A stretch of 63,837 nucleotides of DNA, counting the filler. It is 6 parts of 6 records of this genome, joined end to end, with 100 filler letters (N's around TTAATTAATTAA, not from the genome) between each part and the next. Parts side by side here need not be neighbours in the genome. Positions count along the whole stretch, not along the records: positions 1 to 11,104 come from SRR2962707_1968; 5 more parts are not named here. One strand, 5' to 3'. The translations under genes were made by a program, and so were the position numbers. This document shows positions 1 to 57,064 of the stretch, one piece after another; position 1 is the stretch's first letter, and the number at the start of each line of letters is the position of its first letter. The notes under the pieces were generated by a model. The model was not told the DNA's origin. It saw nothing but the letters and a program-made list of their open reading frames with translations, and searched no databases.

Positions 1-29
1 GTGTGTGTGTGCGCGCGCGCGTGTGTGTG
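1..29. repeat. (GT)n/(GC)n dinucleotide microsatellite at the window/contig edge
   Basis: Reads gtgtgtgtgtgcgcgcgcgcgtgtgtgtg; the same repeat type starts contig 6. Confidence 0.9.
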
Positions 30-452
30 CATCGGTCAAGGAGGAAGGCTAGGATAGCTGTCATGTCTGCGTGTTATATCGCAAAGTCAGAGTGGTTTCA
101 ACTTCGACACGACACTATGAGAGGAGGAAGCAAAAAAGAAGGGGAATCGCCAAAGGTAAAACAAGACTGTGGCGTGTCTTGTGTGCTCAAGAGGTGTTGG
201 GGTGGTAAGGTCAGGAAGAACGAGCTGCCAGTTTGAGCAAGTCGGCTCGTTGCAGAAGATTGAGATAGAGAGACGGTGTGAAGAAGGAAATAGTTTTCAG
301 AACGTTGTGCATTGTGTGTGAAGAACGGTGTTTCTTTGTGCATGTTTGTTCAATGAACGTACGCGCAACATGGCTATTTTCGTTTTATTTTTATTTTTAA
401 TTAAAATTTGGATTGCACTGGTTTCATGGAAACAACACGGATCACTCCATTG

Positions 453-3400
453 TTATGTTGCATTTTGCAGTGCTACAAGTTGCGCAAGCACTTCCCTCAA
501 GCTGATTTCAAGTTCTTCAACGCGCTTCTTGAGTATGTCAACTTCATGGCCATCAACATTGGACTGATCTGCTAGGTGACGGCGACTTATGAGATCTAGC
601 AAATTGTAGTTGTCCACTCCATCACTGACAAGCACTTCTGTTGTACCCTCCAGGGTGATACTGTCGGCTGCCACCACGAAGTTGGTTGTTGCGGTTATGT
701 CCGCATTTTCGAAAGCCATCGTGACATCTCCGACAGCATCGAGCTCAAACGCATGGCAAGTCATTTCGATATTGCCGTCGTCGCCAGCTGCACTGACACC
801 GCCAGAGATTAAAACGTTTCCACCCTTTGCTGAAAATGCCGTGGCCCCACCGGAGACTACAATATCGCCCCCGACACCTTGCGTTCCCGTTGTATTTCCC
901 CCTTGCAGAAGCACTCCCCCGCCACCTGCGGTATGATCAGTTGAGCCCACCACCAATGAAATTCCTCCTCCAGTTCCACCTACAGCATTCCCCGTTTGCA
1001 CAGAAAAGGCACCTGAGGGTCCGTCGGTTGACGCGCCTGTCGAAAACGATACACTTCCGCTTGTGCCTGCCAGCCCAGCATCGGGAGTGTTCACAGCAAA
1101 ACTTCCACTTGAGGTTGCGGAGCTGGCCCCTGTCGACAGTGAAATGGCACCACCACCACCTGTTGTTGCTGCTCCGGCGGCGACTATAATTGCGCCACCT
1201 TGGGTGCCTTCACCAACGGTTAGCGAAATGTCGCCACTCGTGCTGACGCCGGAGTCTCCAGTGGACAAGGCAAGACTCCCGCTAACAGACCCCGCGCCAC
1301 TGGTCGCCACTGAGTCACCAGATCGGATGGAAACGTCGCCACTCTGCCCTATAGTTCCCGAATCCGCAGTGGCAATTGTTATTGCGCCGCTGCTAGTTTG
1401 TTCACTTGCTCCACTTGTGAGCGTAATTGCTCCGCCGGTAGTTCCATCTGCCGATTCTGTGGCTCCTGCAGACATTGATATCGATCCTCCTTCGCCGTCA
1501 CTACCTGTGCCTACAACAACTGCGATGGATCCAGCGACTCCACCCGTGGCATCTGATGTCAGTAGAGAGATCGCCCCCGAATCGCCAGCGGAGGCTATGC
1601 CTGAGACAAGGTCAATGTCCCCGGTCGCGTCGCTTGCGGCCGTGGCAATACTAATTCCTCCACTGACATCGCCACTGCCCGTCGAAAGTGTAACACCTCC
1701 GCCAATCGGAGCATTTGAGTCACCGACGGCAAACAAGATATCGCCACCACTTCCGCCTGATGCATCGCCGGTTGTAAAAGTGACCGATCCACTTGCACCG
1801 GCCGTGGCAACGCCTGACTTGAAGAGTAGGTCACCGCTGATACCACCAGTGGCACCACCGCCAGCAGCATTAGCTGTCCGAACCGTGAAATCTCCGCTTG
1901 ATGTGTCAGCGCCCAACCCAGTGGTAAGCGCAATGGATCCACCAGTGTCAGTGTCAGACCGGCCAGCTGTGAAAACAAGGTTTCCGCCTGGTGCACCATC
2001 TGCTACGCCAGCCAATAAGGAGATATCACCACTGGCATCGCCGTTGCTGGCCCCTGTTCTGAGCGTGATGGCGCCTGATTCGGCACTGGAAGTGTCCCCG
2101 GTGTTGATCACGATATCACCGCTTTGCCCTGTGCCGACGGGGACGTCAGCAGTGGCAATAGTGAAGTCGCCACTGGATGTTGAGCTGCTGCTTCCGGTTG
2201 TCAACGCAATAGTCCCTCCAGTCAAGTCGCTAGATGCGCCGCCATTGACAGTGATCGAGGCGCCCTGTCCCGAAGATGTGTCACCGGCCTGGAAGGTGAT
2301 GTCACCGCCTCGGCCAGCGGAACCACCATCGCCTGTCGTGATTGAGACAGATCCTGCGTCGTCCGTTGCCGCATCCCCTGTGGTCATGACAATGGCGCCA
2401 CTGTCGCCAACGGCGCCAAGCGCTGCGCCAGTGGATACTACAACAGCACCTCCTGAAGCATCGGCGCTTGCACCAGTCTCAATTGTGAGCTGCCCTCCAT
2501 CGCCTCCTGTGGCTTCGCCTATCGCAAAGAAGATGCCGCCGGACGCACCATCATCTGAGCCTCCAGTAGAAAATTCAAGGTGGCCACTTGTGCCACTTGT
2601 GCTGTTGCCTGATGAGAAGGCCAAACTGCCACTAACGCCGCTCAAGCCAGCGTCTGCAGTGGACACGCTGAAGTCACCACTTGATGTAGCTGTGCTCGCG
2701 CCCGTTACAAGAGAAATGGACCCTCCAGTATTGGCGGTGTCTGTTTGCCCTGCCTCTAATAGTATCAGCCCCCCTGTGGATAGTTCCCCGTCGCCGACAA
2801 GCAACAAAATATCGCCTCCGCTCCCGCCAGTCGCAGCACCAGTTGTGAGGCTGAGCATTCCGCTATCACCGTCTGCGTTGTCACCAGTAGAGAAGGACAG
2901 CTCTCCGGACGTGCTGTCTGTTGCAGAACCTGTAGACAGCCAGATGTGACCTGACGCCCCCACATTTCCAGCATCACTTGTCGCTAGCTCGATATGGCCG
3001 CTCGACGTAGAAACGCTACCGCCACTGGTGATTGACACAGATCCACCGATGTTGGAATCCGCAGTGCCAGCAAGCAAGCTCACGTCTCCCCCATCTCCGC
3101 TGTCCCCGAACCCGACCGAAAGCACGATCGATCCTGCCCGTCCGCTGGTTGCGTTGCTTGAACTGATTCGCATCTGTCCCGAGTTTCCTGCGTTTCCAGC
3201 TCCAGAAATCATAGACACATCTCCGCCATCACCCGAGCCAGCTCCGCTGCCCGCAAGGATGTTGATGGCACCCCCTGTGCCAGCCGCCGTCACCCCGCTG
3301 ACGATATCAATTTTTCCACCGTTGCCCGAGCTGCCTGAACCTACTCGCAGCAGGATGCTGCCACCAGCCCCGGAAGAACTGACCCCAGTGTAAATCTGCA

Positions 3401-6400
3401 TGGCCCCGCTGGTTCCATTGGTTGCTGCGCCACTGAAGAGTGATACAGGTCCACTCGCACCTGAAGCACCAGCATTGGCCGAACGAATGACAATCGCGCC
3501 GCTGGTCGTAGCAGTTCCTTCCCCAGACGAAATCATTACGGCGCCACCAGTTTCAGTTGCTGATTGGCCAGCACCCATTGTAAGAGAACCGCCAACGCCA
3601 AGGTCACCGTTGCCGACCGCGATGCTAATATCGCCTCCAGCCCCGTCTTGTGCAGGTCCACTGTAAATGGACACACTGCCAGAATTTGCGAAATCGGCAT
3701 CGCCGCTGCCAACGGTAACATCACCAGACAAACCATCTGCAGTCGCACCTGTCTTCAACAAGAGAGCTCCGCTTTCACCCAATGTGCCTCCCGGTGCAGT
3801 TCGCACGACAATGTCGCCGCTGGATGTGGCGGCGCCAGCACCTGACAGAACTGATAATGAACCACCCATCCCATCGCTTGAGTCACCTCCAGCTATCGAC
3901 ACACTTCCGCCCTGTGAGGATGTAACACCTTCACCAGCTAACAGCCAAATATCACCACCGCGGCCAGCCGCAGATGAACCAGTTTCAACCCGAATATCTC
4001 CAGCTGCACCAACTGTGGAATTACCTGTTCGGAGCGTTGCTGAGCCACTGGTTCCGGATGCCCCTGCATCGCTGGTGGCCAGCAAAAGAGCTCCACTTGA
4101 GGTAGCGACGCTACTGCCTGTCCGGAGCGTGATTTCTCCTCCAATTTCATTGCTGCTGGAACCCGCAAGAACACTCACGCCGCCGACTCCTTCATCGGAA
4201 AATGCAGTGGATAACGACAGTGAACCACTTGTCCCACCCGCTGCACCTCCGGATGAAATGCTGATTGCTCCTCCAACAGTGCTGGCAGTTGTCGATGTTG
4301 TCGCCCCGGCGCGAAGGGAGAGATCACCTCCGTTGTCGGACGTAGAGTTTCCAGCGAACAGATGTACAGCACCACCGTCTGCCGCGTCGGAAGATCCAAC
4401 GTGCACCACAAAACTCCCAACGTCGCCGCCAGGCGCATCCCCAGTCTCCAATCGAATGGACCCAGAATTTCCATTCGATGCCAACCCCGAAACCAATGAT
4501 ATGCTACCGCTCGCTCCGCTGGTTCCGGGACCATCGGGTGTGAAAATGGAAATATCACCAGATGAAACATCATCGCTTGCCCCCGAGCGAAGCGTGATGT
4601 CACCACCAGAACTGGCACCCGAATTTCCGGCAAATAGTGTGATGTCGCCACCTGCATCAATGTCTCCATCGCCGACAGCCATCAATATGGCGCCGCCACT
4701 TCCCGTGTCACTTACCCCAGTTGTGAAGCTGATGGAACCACTTGCGCCACTTGACGCTGTTCCTGATGCAAATGAGAGACTGCCACTGACGCCAACAAGC
4801 CCGGCGTTTGCAGAACTTATAGTCACTGCACCGCTTGACGTTGTTGTGCTTGCACCAGAGGAGATGGTCACGGAGCCCCCTTCCAAAGAAGCCCCATTCG
4901 TATGGCCAGACCCGAGAGCAACATCCCCGGCGTTCGAGTTTGCGCTATTCCCTGTGAAAAGGCTAATTCCCCCAGACGCGCCTTGACTTGCTCCGGTCAC
5001 GATGGTGATTGAACCGCTGCTTCCCGACGAGGCCACATTGCCAGTGACAAGTTGCAGATCGCCACTTGAATCTGAGCTGACGCCAGTGATCAGGTCAATA
5101 GACCCTCCGCTGCCAGAATCTCCAGCGCCAACGAGAATTGAAATACTGCCCCCAGTTCCATCAGTAGCTCCACCACTCGCAATGGCGATTGCACCGGAGG
5201 TCGAGGCTGACGCTTCACCGGACATCAACGCAATCGCGCCACTGACGCCGAAACTGCCTGCATTGCCACTTCTGATGGTGATGGCACCCGTCGACGAGTC
5301 TGACGCACCACTAACGAGCGTGACTGCACCTCCAGACTCAGACGCAGCTTCGCCTGCTGACAACACCAACTCACCCCCTATTCCCGAGTCGCCACCGCCG
5401 ACTGACATAGATAGAGCTCCTCCACGCCCATTCTCCGCAGCCAGAGACGCAATCGCGATTGAGCCTGACGATCCACCACTTGCAGAGCCTGCCGACAGTG
5501 CAAGCGACCCGCTCACCCCAAAGCTGCCAGCGTTGGGAGTTGTGATAGAAATGGTTCCACTGCTCGTTGAAGTTGACAAACCACTGGATAGTTCCAATGA
5601 ACCACCCACCGCAGCGTCCGTCGTCCCTGCGGCGATGAAAATACTCCCAGACGATGCACCTGAAGCGGTGCCCGTTCGAATATCGATATTCCCTGACTCA
5701 TCATCCACGTCGGACGAACCCGTTCCAATCCAAATAGCACCGCTGTCTCCGCCGGAGGCAGATGCAGTGCTCAGCAAAACGGCGCCACTGTGTGATGCGC
5801 TGCTTGCGCCTGATGCGACCAGCACATCGCCGCCGGCACTATTCGCAGCTGATCCAGCCTGTATGGTGATGGAACCACTTGTGGCAGTGCTACCTCGGGT
5901 CGATCCCGTTGATAACGCTAAACCTCCTGACGCGCCATTGCTACTAGTGCCCGATTTCAGGGATACTGCACCACTAGAGCCCGCGTTGCCACTGTTGGCA
6001 GAGGCAAGCGTAAGACTTCCACTTGAAGCATCTGCGCTGGCACCCGACTGAAGAGACACACGACCACCTTTCGACCCGGACAGAGTCGATCCCGCACTTG
6101 CTGAAAGCGATGCACCAGACGAGCTTGAGCTCGACCCAACAACAAGCTCAAGTGCCCCAGCCGTTGAATGGGAATTGCCCGAAGCGACAGATATTAGGCC
6201 AGAGCCTTTGGCTGTAGACGTACCTGTTGATAAAAGCAGCTCCCCACTGCCGCCAGTGGACCCGCCGTTGCTGGTCTTGATGTGAACGAATCCACTGGAT
6301 GCTCCCGCGCCTGACGCTAAATCAATAAAACCACCTTGGCCTGTGCTAGAGGCACCAGCAAAAATCTCAACATCGCCGCCATCGGCAAACGCAGCACTGC

Positions 6401-9400
6401 CAACATGCAACAGCAATCCACCGCTCGATCCTTGCGCGGCGGTTCCAGTGCTCAAGCGTAGGTATCCTGAATCGCCGACAACGCTATTTCCTGTTGCAAT
6501 CGCAATAGCTCCCGATGTTCCAACCTGTGAGGTGCCGGATGCAATTGCTATGGCACCACTGGACCCGGTGGAGCCAGCGTTATGAGATCCGACAACAACA
6601 CCTCCAGAAGAGGAAGTTGCAGTGTCTTGGCCTGAAATCAAAGTGATGGCACCTTCCGCGCCAGGGGAGTTCAGGTTGACAATTGAGAAGCTTCCTGCGG
6701 AAATTGTGACATCGCCAGCAGCGGACGAGCTGTCACCGACAGAAATCTCGACATCGCCGCTACGATCAACGGCACTGCCTGATGAAACCCGCACGTTACC
6801 AGAATCGCCGTACGAGGCAGTACCTGAAGTTAATTGCACATCTCCACTGCTGCCAGCGACTGATGCATCGGCGCTCGCAACAGAAACCATGCCACTGGAA
6901 CTCAAGGCACTTGAGCCTGACGTGAGCAAAATATCACCTCCAGCACTTGACGCACTCATGCCTCCCAGGAGCTGCAGATCTCCGCCACTTGAGCTTTCAC
7001 CGTTTGCCGCGCCTGCAGCAAGCACAGCATCACCTGCTTTGACGTTGGTAGACGTCGTTGCACCAGCTGTCAATGTCAGTTGACCACCGCTGCCGCTTCC
7101 GGCAATTCCTACACCAACCCACACGCTGCCAGCGCCAGCGCTTGTGCTGTCAGCGGACGCAACAATGACCGCGCCTGTGGCCCCACTTGCGGCGGTACCG
7201 CTTCCAACAGAAAGTGCGCCGGACTGGCCTGCACTGCTCGCGCTGCCTGATCGCATTTGAAGGTCCCCACTGTTACCAGTCATGCCAGCACCTGTCCAAA
7301 TAACAACGTCTCCGCCATTGAAACCTGCGCCCCCCAAAACAGAAATGGCGCCCCCAGATGATGTTGAGCTTTTGCCACCCACCAGCGCAATGCTACCAGC
7401 CTCAACCTCGGAAGCGCCAGACGTCACCGAAATATCTCCACCAGCTGCCCCAGAATCGCCAATGGCCAACTCCACGCTGCCTGCAGAGTCACTGTCTGAA
7501 GCCCCCGTTGCGATCATGATACCCCCCGTCGCTTCATCTTCGCGACTGTGAGACACCATTTGGATGCCTTGCTCACCAGCACTGACTTCGATTGCTGCAC
7601 TTGAATAGACAATGACGTCACCCCCCTCTTCTTGACCATTTCCAGAACTGATGGCAATTGTTCCGCCAATTCCACCACTACTTCCGGCAGAGAGATTGAT
7701 ATTGGAACCAGCGCTACTGCTGGAATAGCCTACGTGCAACGAAACATCACCTGCACGTCCTGTCGCTGCCCCAGAGGCAATGCGTACTTTTCCACTTGCT
7801 CCGTCAGCAGCAGTACCAGAGGCGACCGTGACGTGCCCGGTCGACGCGCTGTCGTGCGTGGCAAGATACAGTGCTCCTGCCATTTCTTCGACCGCAGCCA
7901 CTCCAGCCACCATCGTCATTACACCTGCTGACATTGTGACATGCCCAGCGTTACTCGACTGCGAGGCACCAACGCTCAAAGTGATGTCGCCAGACTTCAA
8001 CTTGGCATGGCCCGTTTTCATAGAAAGACTACCACTGCCACCATTAATTGCTGAACCTGACCACAAGTCCAGATTCCCACTCGACGCATCAGATGCCGCA
8101 GAAGTGACAGCAACGCCGCCACTTGAAAGAGACCCGGCACCGCTTCTGAGGATTAAATCACCACCAACGCCAGCAAAGCTCGAGCCGGCTGTGATGCCGA
8201 CGTTTGCTGCAGCACCGCTAGCGGAGCTTCCACCCCGAAGGTCTAGCGAACCTGCCTGTTCAAGGCTATCGCCAGTAGTCATTTGAATTGCACCAGATGG
8301 GCTCGTCTCGGCCGATGCTGTCTGCACACTGACACTTCCAGAGCCAGCAACGCCAGTTTCCGCAACAATTCGGACGTCACCGCCACGACTGACAGTGGAT
8401 GCACCGGATGTCAAAGTGGCGGTGCCGCCTTCGTGGGCAGCTGACGCGCCTGCTCGCAAGGACAAGATGCCCCCCACTCCCAACTGTGAAGGCCCGACTT
8501 GCAACGAAATGTGTCCTGCATTATCATTGGCAGCGGACGTGGCGACAGTGACAGACCCAGATGCACCTTGTGCTGAGGATCCAGTCTGCAAAAGAATATT
8601 GCCACTTGCTTGTCCTGCCGGAGTTTCAATCGCAACGTTCCCTGAAGTAGCTTCAGCCGACGCGCCGGATAGAATAGAAGCAGACCCTCCCACTTGCACT
8701 GACAACCCTGCTTGGAGCACAATGGCACCAGATTTTTCACCAACCCCTGTCCCAATGTGCACAGGTCCGCTGCGAGCGTCAGATGATGACCCAGTTGAAA
8801 TCAAGACAGACCCAGTGTTCGAGTTGACAGAACTGCCAGTGGTCATTTGGATGTGCCCTGACGCCGAGGCGATGGCTACACGACTAGATCCAGCGGCAAA
8901 CGTTACGCTGGCGTCATGAGCTTTAGCCGAGTTGTCAGCAGTTGCGATGGCAATGGATCCACTGCTGGACGACGATTCCCCAACACGCAAAATGACACTA
9001 CCGGATGCACCAGCATCGCTTCGGCCTGACAGAAGTGCAATATCTCCAGAAGTCCCTTCCGTGCTTGACCCTGTGGACAGACGAGCGCGCCCAGACGAGA
9101 CACTGTCAGCAGATCCAATGTCAACATCACCAGAGGTGTCCGAAGCCGACCATCCACTACCAAGGGCCAGGTGACCTCCAGGTTCTGTGAGAGCAGCACC
9201 TGACAACACGGCCACAGCGCTACCCTGCGCAGAATTACTTGCACCAACTGACACAGATATTGATCCAGCGTTCGAAGCGTCACCAGATTGCACCGACAGA
9301 CTGCCAGATTGTGCATTGCTTGCGGCAGATGCAATATCGATGCCACCACTCGTCATTCCGCTTACATCGCTCATTAGCGAGATCTGACGGTCGCTAAGCA

Positions 9401-11102
9401 ACGCCATTGTCCCTGCACGCGCAGTCAGAGAACCCGATTCACCAGACGCGGATTGTCCAACCGATAAATCCAGACCACCAGAATTTCGGGTTGCAGCGTT
9501 GCCAGTTGAAACTTGCACATCACCAGACGTGCCAAGCATTGAAGATCCAGATAGTACGGTGACACTACCACTGCTGGAGGATTCTCCAGATGCAGAAGCG
9601 ACCATTGCATAGCCTGACGCCGTGTTGTCGTTGGCTGCGGATCCAGATACCATACGGATAGCACCTCCATCGAACGTGTTACTCGAGCCCGCAGTCATTG
9701 TGAATTCGGCTCCCGATGACGCTTTACTGGTGCCAACTTCCAGACGAATGTCACCCGCAGTGGTACGTGCGTCTCCTGTGAACAAGTGGATACGTCCGGA
9801 CATTTTGCCTTGCGACGTGCCTGTTGACAAGGTAATGTCACCTGTGTTTCCACTTACTGAGGAGCCGGAGTGCATTCCCATGTGTCCACTGGCCGATTTC
9901 GATGCAGCCGACGAAATCATGACGGACCCTGCTTGGCCGTGGGCTGATGGTCCAGATGTAAAACCAATGTCGCCACCAGCCCCACTTAGAGAACTTCCTG
10001 CAATCAAGTTGAATTCACCGCCTCCACCAGAGCCACTCGCCCCGACTGCAACTCGGACTTGACCAGCGCGATCGATAGATGACGAACCTGTGGAGATATC
10101 AACAGCACCAGACGCCAAGGAAGCTGAGCTTCCAGTCGACACGCTGACATAGCCCGATGCTCCCGCGTTGTCTGCCGTTGCGAGCACGACGTCACCGGAA
10201 TCGTCCTCAACGCTCCCTCCTGAAGTTACCATCACACCACCTCCAGCTCCTTGAGCAACCCCGACTTGGGCATGAATGCCCGAGCCACGACCAGACGCAG
10301 ACGTCCCGACCCGCAAGTGCAAAGCACCTGCATCCAAAGCGCTCGAGCCGGTTTCCACAGCTATCAATCCAGAGCTGCCCCGTGCCGCTGAGCCCGTTGA
10401 CAAAGACATTTGTCCACTTGAGCCAACCGAATCAACAGTGTTGATACCCACGTTGCCAGATTCATCGGCTGCAGCTGCACCGCTGCTCAAAGAAATGTCG
10501 CCGCCCCTCTTGCTGCCGGATCCTGCGTTTATATGGATTGCAGCACCGATATCGTGCGACGCACCCCCAACAAGTGCAATGCTTCCTGCAGTCCTTGCCT
10601 GACTTGCTCCGGTAGAAATGACAATGCTGCCGCTTTGCTCAACACTCGAACCCGTTGCAAGATGGACGTCGCCGCTTCTTTCTGCAGCCGATGAAACAAT
10701 GTTAACTGCTCCGCTGGTAGTGCCGGCCCCTGATGCAACTAACACATCTCCTGCAGCTGACTGACTTGATCGACCTGCGGTAATGGTAGTGCGTCCACCC
10801 AGACCGGAACTTGACATTCCTGCTTGAACCATGACGTTGCCAGCGGCTCCGCCGTCACTCTCGCCAGAGGAGATAGAGATGGTTCCCGTATTGCCAAACG
10901 CGGATGAGCCAGAAGAAAGGCCCACGGCTCCACTGTGCGTGAGTGAGTTTCCAGTCGCCAACACAACATGACCAGACGCTGCACCAGAGGTCGTCACTCC
11001 GAAGCCGGACCCTGCCGCCAAACGGACATGGCCATCAGCGGCTGATGCAGACGTGCCAACTTGAAGAGTGACGCCACCGCTTGCGCCGTGATCTGAGTCT
11101 CC
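453..11102 (-). CDS. Giant Gly/Ser/Ala/Thr-rich repeat protein (at least 3549 aa, 5' truncated); predicted beta-solenoid/beta-helix fibre with a C-terminal coiled coil
   Basis: The frame is open from the contig edge (11102: GDSDHGASGGVTLQVGTSASAADGHVRL, joining the ORF-track TTG start at 11021) to TAA at 453. The unit [SAG]G-x-hyd-x-hyd-x-[STAV]-G-x5-7 repeats throughout. No introns. Function is inferred only. Confidence 0.9.
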   Translation of the reverse strand, partial: GDSDHGASGGVTLQVGTSASAADGHVRLAAGSGFGVTTSGAASGHVVLATGNSLTHSGAVGLSSGSSAFGNTGTISISSGESDGGAAGNVMVQAGMSSSGLGGRTTITAGRSSQSAAGDVLVASGAGTTSGAVNIVSSAAERSGDVHLATGSSVEQSGSIVISTGASQARTAGSIALVGGASHDIGAAIHINAGSGSKRGGDISLSSGAAAADESGNVGINTVDSVGSSGQMSLSTGSAARGSSGLIAVETGSSALDAGALHLRVGTSASGRGSGIHAQVGVAQGAGGGVMVTSGGSVEDDSGDVVLATADNAGASGYVSVSTGSSASLASGAVDISTGSSSIDRAGQVRVAVGASGSGGGGEFNLIAGSSLSGAGGDIGFTSGPSAHGQAGSVMISSAASKSASGHMGMHSGSSVSGNTGDITLSTGTSQGKMSGRIHLFTGDARTTAGDIRLEVGTSKASSGAEFTMTAGSSNTFDGGAIRMVSGSAANDNTASGYAMVASASGESSSSGSVTVLSGSSMLGTSGDVQVSTGNAATRNSGGLDLSVGQSASGESGSLTARAGTMALLSDRQISLMSDVSGMTSGGIDIASAASNAQSGSLSVQSGDASNAGSISVSVGASNSAQGSAVAVLSGAALTEPGGHLALGSGWSASDTSGDVDIGSADSVSSGRARLSTGSSTEGTSGDIALLSGRSDAGASGSVILRVGESSSSSGSIAIATADNSAKAHDASVTFAAGSSRVAIASASGHIQMTTGSSVNSNTGSVLISTGSSSDARSGPVHIGTGVGEKSGAIVLQAGLSVQVGGSASILSGASAEATSGNVAIETPAGQASGNILLQTGSSAQGASGSVTVATSAANDNAGHISLQVGPSQLGVGGILSLRAGASAAHEGGTATLTSGASTVSRGGDVRIVAETGVAGSGSVSVQTASAETSPSGAIQMTTGDSLEQAGSLDLRGGSSASGAAANVGITAGSSFAGVGGDLILRSGAGSLSSGGVAVTSAASDASSGNLDLWSGSAINGGSGSLSMKTGHAKLKSGDITLSVGASQSSNAGHVTMSAGVMTMVAGVAAVEEMAGALYLATHDSASTGHVTVASGTAADGASGKVRIASGAATGRAGDVSLHVGYSSSSAGSNINLSAGSSGGIGGTIAISSGNGQEEGGDVIVYSSAAIEVSAGEQGIQMVSHSREDEATGGIMIATGASDSDSAGSVELAIGDSGAAGGDISVTSGASEVEAGSIALVGGKSSTSSGGAISVLGGAGFNGGDVVIWTGAGMTGNSGDLQMRSGSASSAGQSGALSVGSGTAASGATGAVIVASADSTSAGAGSVWVGVGIAGSGSGGQLTLTAGATTSTNVKAGDAVLAAGAANGESSSGGDLQLLGGMSASSAGGDILLTSGSSALSSSGMVSVASADASVAGSSGDVQLTSGTASYGDSGNVRVSSGSAVDRSGDVEISVGDSSSAAGDVTISAGSFSIVNLNSPGAEGAITLISGQDTATSSSGGVVVGSHNAGSTGSSGAIAIASGTSQVGTSGAIAIATGNSVVGDSGYLRLSTGTAAQGSSGGLLLHVGSAAFADGGDVEIFAGASSTGQGGFIDLASGAGASSGFVHIKTSNGGSTGGSGELLLSTGTSTAKGSGLISVASGNSHSTAGALELVVGSSSSSSGASLSASAGSTLSGSKGGRVSLQSGASADASSGSLTLASANSGNAGSSGAVSLKSGTSSNGASGGLALSTGSTRGSTATSGSITIQAGSAANSAGGDVLVASGASSASHSGAVLLSTASASGGDSGAIWIGTGSSDVDDESGNIDIRTGTASGASSGSIFIAAGTTDAAVGGSLELSSGLSTSTSSGTISITTPNAGSFGVSGSLALSAGSASGGSSGSIAIASLAAENGRGGALSMSVGGGDSGIGGELVLSAGEAASESGGAVTLVSGASDSSTGAITIRSGNAGSFGVSGAIALMSGEASASTSGAIAIASGGATDGTGGSISILVGAGDSGSGGSIDLITGVSSDSSGDLQLVTGNVASSGSSGSITIVTGASQGASGGISLFTGNSANSNAGDVALGSGHTNGASLEGGSVTISSGASTTTSSGAVTISSANAGLVGVSGSLSFASGTASSGASGSISFTTGVSDTGSGGAILMAVGDGDIDAGGDITLFAGNSGASSGGDITLRSGASDDVSSGDISIFTPDGPGTSGASGSISLVSGLASNGNSGSIRLETGDAPGGDVGSFVVHVGSSDAADGGAVHLFAGNSTSDNGGDLSLRAGATTSTTASTVGGAISISSGGAAGGTSGSLSLSTAFSDEGVGGVSVLAGSSSNEIGGEITLRTGSSVATSSGALLLATSDAGASGTSGSATLRTGNSTVGAAGDIRVETGSSAAGRGGDIWLLAGEGVTSSQGGSVSIAGGDSSDGMGGSLSVLSGAGAATSSGDIVVRTAPGGTLGESGALLLKTGATADGLSGDVTVGSGDADFANSGSVSIYSGPAQDGAGGDISIAVGNGDLGVGGSLTMGAGQSATETGGAVMISSGEGTATTSGAIVIRSANAGASGASGPVSLFSGAATNGTSGAMQIYTGVSSSGAGGSILLRVGSGSSGNGGKIDIVSGVTAAGTGGAINILAGSGAGSGDGGDVSMISGAGNAGNSGQMRISSSNATSGRAGSIVLSVGFGDSGDGGDVSLLAGTADSNIGGSVSITSGGSVSTSSGHIELATSDAGNVGASGHIWLSTGSATDSTSGELSFSTGDNADGDSGMLSLTTGAATGGSGGDILLLVGDGELSTGGLILLEAGQTDTANTGGSISLVTGASTATSSGDFSVSTADAGLSGVSGSLAFSSGNSTSGTSGHLEFSTGGSDDGASGGIFFAIGEATGGDGGQLTIETGASADASGGAVVVSTGAALGAVGDSGAIVMTTGDAATDDAGSVSITTGDGGSAGRGGDITFQAGDTSSGQGASITVNGGASSDLTGGTIALTTGSSSSTSSGDFTIATADVPVGTGQSGDIVINTGDTSSAESGAITLRTGASNGDASGDISLLAGVADGAPGGNLVFTAGRSDTDTGGSIALTTGLGADTSSGDFTVRTANAAGGGATGGISGDLLFKSGVATAGASGSVTFTTGDASGGSGGDILFAVGDSNAPIGGGVTLSTGSGDVSGGISIATAASDATGDIDLVSGIASAGDSGAISLLTSDATGGVAGSIAVVVGTGSDGEGGSISMSAGATESADGTTGGAITLTSGASEQTSSGAITIATADSGTIGQSGDVSIRSGDSVATSGAGSVSGSLALSTGDSGVSTSGDISLTVGEGTQGGAIIVAAGAATTGGGGAISLSTGASSATSSGSFAVNTPDAGLAGTSGSVSFSTGASTDGPSGAFSVQTGNAVGGTGGGISLVVGSTDHTAGGGGVLLQGGNTTGTQGVGGDIVVSGGATAFSAKGGNVLISGGVSAAGDDGNIEMTCHAFELDAVGDVTMAFENADITATTNFVVAADSITLEGTTEVLVSDGVDNYNLLDLISRRHLADQSNVDGHEVDILKKRVEELEISLREVLAQLVALQNAT

Positions 11103-11104
11103 TG

Positions 11105-11204
11105 NNNNNNNNNNNNNNNNNNNNNNNNNNNNNNNNNNNNNNNNNNNNTTAATTAATTAANNNNNNNNNNNNNNNNNNNNNNNNNNNNNNNNNNNNNNNN
11201 NNNN
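11105..11204. other. Artificial contig spacer (N44-TTAATTAATTAA-N44, stops in all six frames)
   Basis: Seen directly; an identical spacer occurs five times in the window. Confidence 0.99.
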
Positions 11205-23612: not shown

Positions 23613-23712
23613 NNNNNNNNNNNNNNNNNNNNNNNNNNNNNNNNNNNNNNNNNNNNTTAATTAATTAANNNNNNNNNNNNNNNNNNNNNNNNNNNNNNNN
23701 NNNNNNNNNNNN
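23613..23712. other. Artificial contig spacer
   Basis: N44-TTAATTAATTAA-N44. Confidence 0.99.
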
Positions 23713-36396: not shown

Positions 36397-36496
36397 NNNN
36401 NNNNNNNNNNNNNNNNNNNNNNNNNNNNNNNNNNNNNNNNTTAATTAATTAANNNNNNNNNNNNNNNNNNNNNNNNNNNNNNNNNNNNNNNNNNNN
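36397..36496. other. Artificial contig spacer
   Basis: N44-TTAATTAATTAA-N44. Confidence 0.99.
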
Positions 36497-42504: not shown

Positions 42505-42604
42505 NNNNNNNNNNNNNNNNNNNNNNNNNNNNNNNNNNNNNNNNNNNNTTAATTAATTAANNNNNNNNNNNNNNNNNNNNNNNNNNNNNNNNNNNNNNNN
42601 NNNN
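42505..42604. other. Artificial contig spacer
   Basis: N44-TTAATTAATTAA-N44. Confidence 0.99.
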
Positions 42605-56964: not shown

Positions 56965-57064
56965 NNNNNNNNNNNNNNNNNNNNNNNNNNNNNNNNNNNN
57001 NNNNNNNNTTAATTAATTAANNNNNNNNNNNNNNNNNNNNNNNNNNNNNNNNNNNNNNNNNNNN
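56965..57064. other. Artificial contig spacer
   Basis: N44-TTAATTAATTAA-N44. Confidence 0.99.

Follow-up and report, generated by a model that had tools for sequence, protein, structure and literature searches.

A giant protein of 15-residue glycine/serine-rich repeats, predicted to build a trimeric triple-beta-helix fibre of a eukaryotic microbe

We analysed a window of 63,837 nucleotides in which six unlinked contigs are joined end to end. The first contig (SRR2962707_1968, positions 1-11104) carries one gene, encoding a giant protein made almost entirely of a short repeat. Its minus-strand frame 453..11102 codes for 3,549 residues with no internal stop, terminates with TAA and has no intron across 10.6 kb. 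The features of this contig, followed by the spacers of the window, are as follows.

456..11104, minus strand: frame encoding the giant repeat protein, of which 3,549 codons are present; its 5' end is truncated where the contig stops at 11104
453..455, minus strand: stop codon TAA
5607..11081, minus strand: N-terminal repeat region (residues 8-1832), plain 15-residue units without clear higher-order periodicity
780..5606, minus strand: C-terminal repeat region (residues 1833-3441), 15-residue units grouped by a punctuation motif
603..779, minus strand: C-terminal cap outside the repeats (residues 3442-3500), with a short hydrophobic strand every 7-8 residues and the single Cys
456..602, minus strand: C-terminal helices (residues 3501-3549), a predicted parallel three-chain coiled coil
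1..452, no strand: 3' flank without a credible open reading frame (ORF), with an A/T-rich run at 373-414 and a CA/CG simple repeat at 1-33
11105-11204, 23613-23712, 36397-36496, 42505-42604 and 56965-57064, no strand: artificial spacers N44-TTAATTAATTAA-N44, not biology

The portion of the protein that we see has a mass of 324.6 kDa and an isoelectric point of 4.09. Its composition is dominated by G (20.5%), S (19.6%), A (13.8%) and T (8.5%), so that these four account for 62% of the residues, and Ser plus Thr for 28%; Lys and Arg together number only 84. The sole Cys is residue 3449, and we found no transmembrane-like segment, the highest 19-residue Kyte-Doolittle mean being 1.53. Three ORFs lie antisense inside the gene on the plus strand, at 1063-2949 (628 aa), 3667-4986 (439 aa) and 5002-6051 (349 aa); they are probably no separate genes, but what a frame rich in Gly, Ser and Ala codons would be expected to throw up.

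The period of the repeat is 15 residues. The identity of the protein to itself at lag 15 is 0.224 against 0.123 expected, and 1000 shuffles scored over lags 1-60 never exceeded 0.148; weaker peaks at lag 7 (0.158) and lag 8 (0.149) correspond to a half-unit. By length, residues 8-3441 hold ~229 units and cover 3,434 of the 3,549 residues seen. A regular-expression anchor picks out 218 units, among them 95 of 15 residues, 31 of 14 and 24 of 16, with ~11 of the 218 being of double length and having a degenerate second anchor. The consensus of the 95 exact 15-mers is [S/G]1 G2 x3 [IVL]4 x5 [LIVF]6 x7 [ST]8 G9 x10 [SA]11 x12 x13 G14 x15, where positions 2, 4 and 6 are partly forced by the expression whereas G9, [SA]11 and [ST]8 are not; these three are conserved in 90, 80 and 68 of the 95 units, respectively. 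Positions 5, 7 and 8 are 41-72% Ser/Thr. Tandem Repeats Finder returned only five trivial rows for positions 1-11104, with at most 3.3 copies, and therefore there is no array at the DNA level. All of this agrees with an earlier note on the same DNA, made from the letters alone, which had described a Gly/Ser-rich frame of at least 3549 aa running off the contig, about 3400 aa of tandem units (220-230 by length), one Cys, no transmembrane segment, and a pattern kept at the protein level without DNA-level tandem repeats. Judged from the sequence, the repeat is a strand-and-turn pattern rather than low complexity. We also considered an RTX-like calcium roll and dropped it: the GGD at the unit start differs from the GGxGxD nonapeptide, and there is no Pfam match.

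A second level of order is laid over the units by a punctuation motif, TSSG-x-h-x-h-x-T-x-[DN]AG-xx-G-x-SG, which occurs 14 times, the first copy standing at about residue 1497 and successive copies lying 90-107, 152-169 or 246-261 aa apart. Three of the copies (residues 1497, 1601 and 1692) stand at the end of the N-terminal repeat region and the other 11 within residues 1833-3441, where they set off blocks of about 6, 7, 10 or 11 units. The autocorrelation of the C-terminal repeat region is 0.249 at lag 15 and 0.187 at lag 91, and that of the N-terminal repeat region is 0.208 at lag 15 and at background for lags 76-107. The punctuated super-repeat is also found in relatives of the protein, in the consensus of the homologue alignments A1 and A2.

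The frame is unlikely to be a product of misassembly. A public run from another study (X2) yields a single contig of 11,023 nt that is colinear with 418..11104, with 0 differences and 0 joints, and hence the long frame is no assembly artefact; this contig extends 336 nt past 11104, i.e. further 5' of the gene. It stops at 418, beside the A-rich run 373-414, and leaves 1-417 uncovered, while the DNA run continues past that point; X2 is only tentatively labelled as RNA, and we do not take 418 for a transcript end on the strength of one run. In the contigs of run X1 a single base is missing at each of 2769, 7621 and 8470, at full depth, and the frame would be broken there. X2 and the window are concordant at all three positions, and the gaps are probably indel errors in the X1 contigs.

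We predicted the structures of two monomers with AlphaFold2, one of the last 420 residues and one of residues 3230-3489, using an input alignment of homologues and internal paralogues. The mean predicted local distance difference test (pLDDT) values are 71.7 and 74.3, and ten-residue blocks lie mostly at 60-86 over the repeats, as expected for the folded, repeat-built fibre proposed earlier and not for disorder. DSSP assigned no strand in the repeats and no intrachain sheet in either model. A confident chain without intrachain sheets resembles one chain taken from an interwoven trimer. The last ~50 residues are predicted to be helical, at 372-386 and 389-419 of the 420-residue model.

The structural neighbours point in the same direction. 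When the repeat-only model was compared using the exhaustive aligner VIA, only 4 of 48,161 PDB chains reached Z>=2, i.e. 4ufq_B (Hyal_Sk; Z 3.9, root-mean-square deviation (RMSD) 3.9 A, 154 residues aligned), 2c3f_A (HylP1; Z 3.6), 6wv2_A (a second phage hyaluronidase; Z 3.4) and 24qj_A (a phage tailspike; Z 3.1). According to a review (PMC11669647), the first three are triple-stranded beta-helices. For the 420-residue model the VIA list is filled by coiled coils aligned on residues 360-420 (Z about 5), and a comparison with the T4 gp5 beta-helix chain 6p20_C gives an RMSD of 1.9 A over 108 of 109 residues with Z 4.9. Foldseek against BFVD gave two matches at E<=1e-3, both to uncharacterised proteins of uncultured tailed phages.

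We then folded three copies of the last 300 residues together using ESMFold2, without a homologue alignment, and obtained a score of 0.63, compared with 0.00 for the best of three controls. The mark applied to this score is reached by 21 of 30 solved one-chain pairs and by none of 23 single chains, and among eukaryotes by 17 of 29 pairs, 1 of 7 without an older solved relative, and 0 of 30 single chains; this calibration was made with two copies, not three. Between runs, at least 91% of contacts are the same, and the pLDDT of the partner is at least 54. Among the 25 lowest-error pairs, 22 are offset by 7-8 residues between chains in one cyclic sense; these offsets thus correspond to the register of a triple beta-helix. 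The lowest-error inter-chain contacts lie in the cap (residues 3442-3500), and the helix contacts at 392, 395/396, 399, 402/403, 406, 409/410, 413, 416/417 and 420 follow heptad a/d spacing. Taken together the models favour, without proving it, a triple beta-helix of three identical chains, set in register by a C-terminal coiled coil. Hence one of the two architectures offered by the earlier note, the trimeric triple beta-helix, is supported by the models and the co-fold, and the other, a monomeric beta-solenoid, is not, as DSSP finds no strands in the repeats.

The protein has relatives, and some of them carry Peptidase_S74, EGF or Kringle domains. An exhaustive HMMER search with the last 1,200 aa against 1.84 billion representatives returned 830 matches at E<=1e-3, of which 141 reach E<=1e-10 and 6 reach E<=1e-30. 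Organism names are attached to 4 of 30 matches: Ectocarpus sp., Lagenidium giganteum, Aphanomyces astaci and one contig of an archaeal bin. The first three are stramenopiles, and their relatives of the protein sit in nuclear assemblies; the archaeon-binned relative lies on a 3.5-kb contig and is titled 'tail fiber domain-containing protein'. Two further clusters come from a marine eukaryotic transcript catalogue and are labelled 'merc', and the rest from unnamed assemblies or metagenomes.

The C-terminal end is shared as well. The cap and coiled coil are conserved in P0028 (53% identity), P0044 and P0051, three fragments match this non-repeat C-terminal domain at 37-52% identity, and a metagenome contig (L001) encodes an ORF of >1,562 aa with the same repeats, cap and coiled coil, 30-36% identical over >1,300 aa. 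Within that ORF (49..4737) the repeats of L001 are interrupted at ~2640-2900 by a non-repeat insert of ~85 aa, and a stop lies just upstream of the first repeat of the ORF; the insert and the upstream stop may mark an exon boundary. Signal-peptide-like hydrophobic N-termini are seen in P0026, which also has EGF, and in the Aphanomyces protein P0029, both judged by a heuristic only.

Peptidase_S74 is found above the Pfam cut-off in 6 of 30 relatives scanned, i.e. P0004 (three times), P0027, P0043, P0084, P0039 and P0019, often between two repeat blocks. EGF is found in two (P0018 and P0026) and Kringle in one (P0006). P0004 (1,767 aa) consists of three tandem modules, each a repeat stalk followed by Peptidase_S74, and looks like a polyprotein of self-cleaving fibres; it matches the PHROG tail-fibre family phrog_1980 at 2.2e-40. 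P0006 combines the repeat with three Kringle domains, and P0018 and P0026 combine it with EGF or teneurin-type EGF modules. P0066 has a match to the VgrG-type DUF2345 that stays below threshold (19.6 bits vs a cut-off of 30.7). In P0009 (Lagenidium giganteum DAZ94475.1), ~520 aa of repeat and a Cys-containing end piece are followed by ~1,000 aa that look helical and importin-like by eye; the gene model has probably run two genes together. We also considered whether the giant protein carries a degenerate S74 at its C-terminus and dropped the idea, since BLASTP against P0004 aligned the repeats only.

Searches for named families agree with the earlier statement that none is recognisable. Pfam gave no family for all 3,549 aa (the only row is DUF2917 at E 0.83), and NCBIfam gave no match for the whole protein. 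The PDB sequence search, with protein and profile, and the word-index homology searches (whole protein, the C-terminal 110 aa against longer proteins, and an ORF of contig 3) gave no match, and the best values in the ESM Atlas, 0.80 (unnamed eukaryotic clusters) and 0.75 (an S74-bearing viral cluster), are under the level at which the tool calls a lead. The tblastn phage, IMG/VR, JGI and prokaryotic-genome scans use a few exact peptide patterns and reach close relatives only. Within this reach we found no relative in 50,697 phage records (tblastn), none in IMG/VR with the 420-residue query, and no close relative in 185,579 prokaryotic species genomes; a single-protein query found none in the JGI metagenomes, where a query with alignment A3 then found L001. 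An Rfam scan of the whole window gave no match.

The gene and its repeat are real. Our analysis suggests that the product is probably a secreted, homotrimeric extracellular fibre protein of a eukaryotic microbe, with the fold of a triple beta-helix; trimer and fold are predicted in silico. The C-terminal coiled coil and the short beta cap would bring three identical chains into register, which is the job of S74 in the relatives and in phage fibres. The chains would then wind into an interwoven triple-stranded beta-helix of triangular cross-section that propagates towards the N-terminus. Positions 4 and 6 of the unit (I/L/V) would point into the core, and the glycines G2 and G9 would make the turns or corners. 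The half-period of 7/8, the near-invariant G2 and G9 and the 7-8-residue offsets (mostly in the cap region) bear on how a unit is laid out; we favour a layout in which one unit covers two faces of the triangle (7 + 8 residues), like the 12-residue unit of the glycofibril TLP-12, because of the half-period and the two invariant glycines.

The expected product is a rigid, acidic, Ser/Thr-rich rod, a few nanometres wide. With two faces per unit its ~229 units would add up to ~220 nm, and with one face per unit to ~110 nm; a length of 110-220 nm is thus more likely than the 50-110 nm given in the earlier note. The outward Ser/Thr are probably heavily O-glycosylated. We infer secretion, glycosylation, length and cellular role: the outward Ser/Thr, the acidity, the EGF and Kringle domains of relatives and the signal-like N-termini together argue for an extracellular, probably glycosylated fibre, which may serve as a hair on the cell surface, a fibril of the glycocalyx or an adhesive fibril.

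The source is most likely a stramenopile or another marine protist. The protist origin proposed earlier is plausible from the relatives; the window itself gives it no support. The six contigs start at 1, 11205, 23713, 36497, 42605 and 57065, and as they are unlinked, sequence to the right of 11104 is not the neighbourhood of the gene. Contig 2 (GC content 0.62) encodes methylmalonyl-CoA mutase and contig 5 encodes YjbH and an MFS transporter, and both look bacterial; contig 3 encodes a LAA1/HEATR5-like protein and is eukaryotic. The assembly is thus a mixture of bacterial and eukaryotic sequence. Codon usage is too flat across all contigs to separate them.

Several observations weigh against a eukaryotic trimeric fibre. 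Foldseek against the PDB gave no match at E<=0.001. The VIA Z-scores are low (3.1-4.9), under the range that the tool calls common for unrelated models. The pLDDT of the co-fold is only 55-59, its confident interface covers about the last 170 residues, and its pass may be owed to solved phage fibres that the model has memorised. With regard to the two faces per unit, the gp5 alignment takes up 108 residues of a 169-residue span of the model, and one face fits at least as well. The HMMER E-values may be inflated, as the protein is 40% Gly+Ser; the C-terminal matches are immune to this objection because that part is non-repeat. The N-terminus of the gene lies beyond the contig end, and signal-peptide-like starts are known from relatives only. 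The giant protein itself has no S74 by Pfam and no PHROG match (0 families for the last 600 aa), in which it departs from S74-type phage fibres. As to the host, bacterial sequence makes up at least two of the five remaining contigs.

An alternative hypothesis keeps the fold and assigns the gene to a virus of protists, i.e. a giant virus, a polinton-like virus or an integrated element, with the protein as a virion fibre. The S74 domains in 6 of the 30 relatives scanned, the PHROG match of P0004 and the tailed-phage origin of both BFVD matches would suit such a virus, the first contig has this gene alone and hence no linked host gene, and endosialidase-type chaperone domains are mentioned in protist-virus papers. 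We consider it unlikely, as the named relatives lie in nuclear assemblies of three stramenopiles, others are fusions with EGF or Kringle, extracellular modules of cells, the 452-bp flank holds simple repeats and no ORF, and neither IMG/VR nor the phage records gave a relative within the reach stated above. It is very unlikely that the first contig belongs to a bacterium or phage present in the culture, as contigs 2 and 5 may. Here the same flank without ORFs, the missing NCBIfam and phage-record matches, the eukaryotic names on relatives, the same C-terminal domain in transcript-catalogue fragments and, within its limited reach, the search of the 185,579 prokaryotic species genomes have to be set against the mixed window, the intron-less 10.6 kb and the one relative in an archaeal bin with its tail-fibre title.

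Two other hypotheses question the fold and not the host. Antifreeze and adhesin solenoids have coils of 12-19 residues, and the unit, with its alternating hydrophobic strand followed by a Gly turn and its flat Ser/Thr-rich faces suited to ice or glycan binding, could form one coil of a single-chain beta-solenoid, a surface adhesin or ice-binding rod. We regard this as quite unlikely: neither AlphaFold2 model has an intrachain sheet at block pLDDT mostly 60-86, no monomeric solenoid is among the four chains at Z>=2, the three-copy co-fold passes with interwoven contacts, and the protein ends in a coiled coil where relatives end in a trimerising chaperone. A mostly unstructured, mucin-like secreted protein, whose Gly/Ser-rich repeat is a glycosylation scaffold only, seems very improbable. 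Such a protein would explain a Gly+Ser+Thr+Ala content of 62%, the empty Pfam and PDB sequence searches and the lack of regular structure assigned by DSSP in the monomer-model repeats; it would hardly keep positions 4 and 6 strictly hydrophobic and G2 and G9 near-invariant over ~229 units without a DNA repeat, hold the same register in distant relatives, or give those block pLDDT values.

Cells of Ectocarpus, Lagenidium and Aphanomyces bear tripartite flagellar hairs, and the known proteins of these hairs are Cys-rich EGF-type shaft proteins. A predicted rod of a few nanometres by 0.1-0.2 µm would have the right order of size for hair filaments. We speculate, as a long shot, that the family with the 15-residue repeat forms the core of a molecularly unidentified extracellular fibril of stramenopiles, such as the terminal or lateral filaments of tripartite hairs, or a glycofibril that cells release into the sea, where it contributes to marine gel particles. 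The passages of the mastigoneme preprint name only Pnmas1-3, which are shaft proteins.

Interwoven triple-beta-helix fibres have long been regarded as a device of phages. Only recently has cryo-EM of pond water shown that protists make enormous fibres of this kind, with producers and roles that are not known. The giant gene described here might be a second, different repeat solution, with 15 residues and a coiled-coil end instead of an autocleaving chaperone. Because two sequencing studies share one organism label for the source, the fibre can be sought on real cells. The family is large, with its 830 representatives, occurs among marine transcript fragments and has no Pfam entry, and a structural interpretation would become available for many Gly/Ser-rich proteins now filed as 'hypothetical' in stramenopiles and uncultured plankton. 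Relatives that mix the repeat with S74, EGF and Kringle hint at phage-type fibre parts entering eukaryotic extracellular proteins. The 15-residue unit may also offer a simple, cysteine-free block for designed rigid protein rods.

The word 'undescribed' in the earlier note needs to be narrowed: the kind of fibre is known through the glycofibril TLP-12, and the term holds for the 15-residue family within the reach of our searches. We found no description of this family in the literature on stramenopile beta-helix giants, S74 in stramenopiles or mastigoneme proteomes; the CryoSeek candidate lists may include stramenopile proteins.

Comparison with known trimeric systems places the protein as follows. 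A trimeric autotransporter of the YadA type was rejected, as neither Pfam nor NCBIfam gives a Hep_Hag/YadA match and the C-terminus is a coiled coil with no membrane beta-barrel anchor. The PL16 hyaluronate lyases (HylP1/HylP2 and Hyal_Sk) supply three of the four resembling chains, at Z 3.4-3.9 over 154-175 aligned residues; the identity is 8-12%, the Z-scores are low and there is no sign of a catalytic groove, and we claim no enzymatic activity. The beta-helix of T4 gp5 has a conserved Gly every 8 residues. The giant protein has one every 7-8 residues, and its model chain superposes on the gp5 chain as given above, a match which has a Z of only 4.9 and leans on the non-repeat cap region. It differs from the gp5/VgrG type in having no gp27/OB-fold, lysozyme part or VgrG/gp5 Pfam family in the portion seen, and it is far longer than a needle tip needs to be.

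With the S74-type phage fibres, the S74/ICA type being the endosialidase type that is also found in animal MYRF, the protein would share a homotrimeric interwoven beta-helix folded from a C-terminal trimerising element, and the S74 domains and the one PHROG tail-fibre match among its relatives add to the likeness. The giant protein is about 10 times as long as a typical phage fibre, and no receptor-binding or enzymatic head is present in the portion seen.

The nearest known system is the cryo-EM glycofibril TLP-12. According to its report (10.1101/2025.09.30.679562), TLP-12 is a natural trimer of 12-residue repeats (GSxxSx7), each of which rises by 9.6 A and covers two sides of the triangle, has an O-glycan coat on Ser, and has candidate giant proteins of ~20,000 aa in Amoebophrya and other alveolates; the same source describes S74 as an intramolecular chaperone that folds triple beta-helices. 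The giant protein differs from it in its unit (15 residues with another consensus, against the 12-residue GSxxSx7), in its end (a beta cap and coiled coil, against the ICA/S74 domain), in its size (~3,600 aa against ~20,000 aa) and in its named relatives (stramenopiles against alveolates). In both cases we see what appears to be a giant protist protein consisting almost wholly of a short Gly/Ser-rich repeat, with a C-terminal device that would set the trimer and with Ser-rich positions facing outward, and the three parallel chains interwoven into a triangular helix, solved for TLP-12, are predicted for the protein described here.

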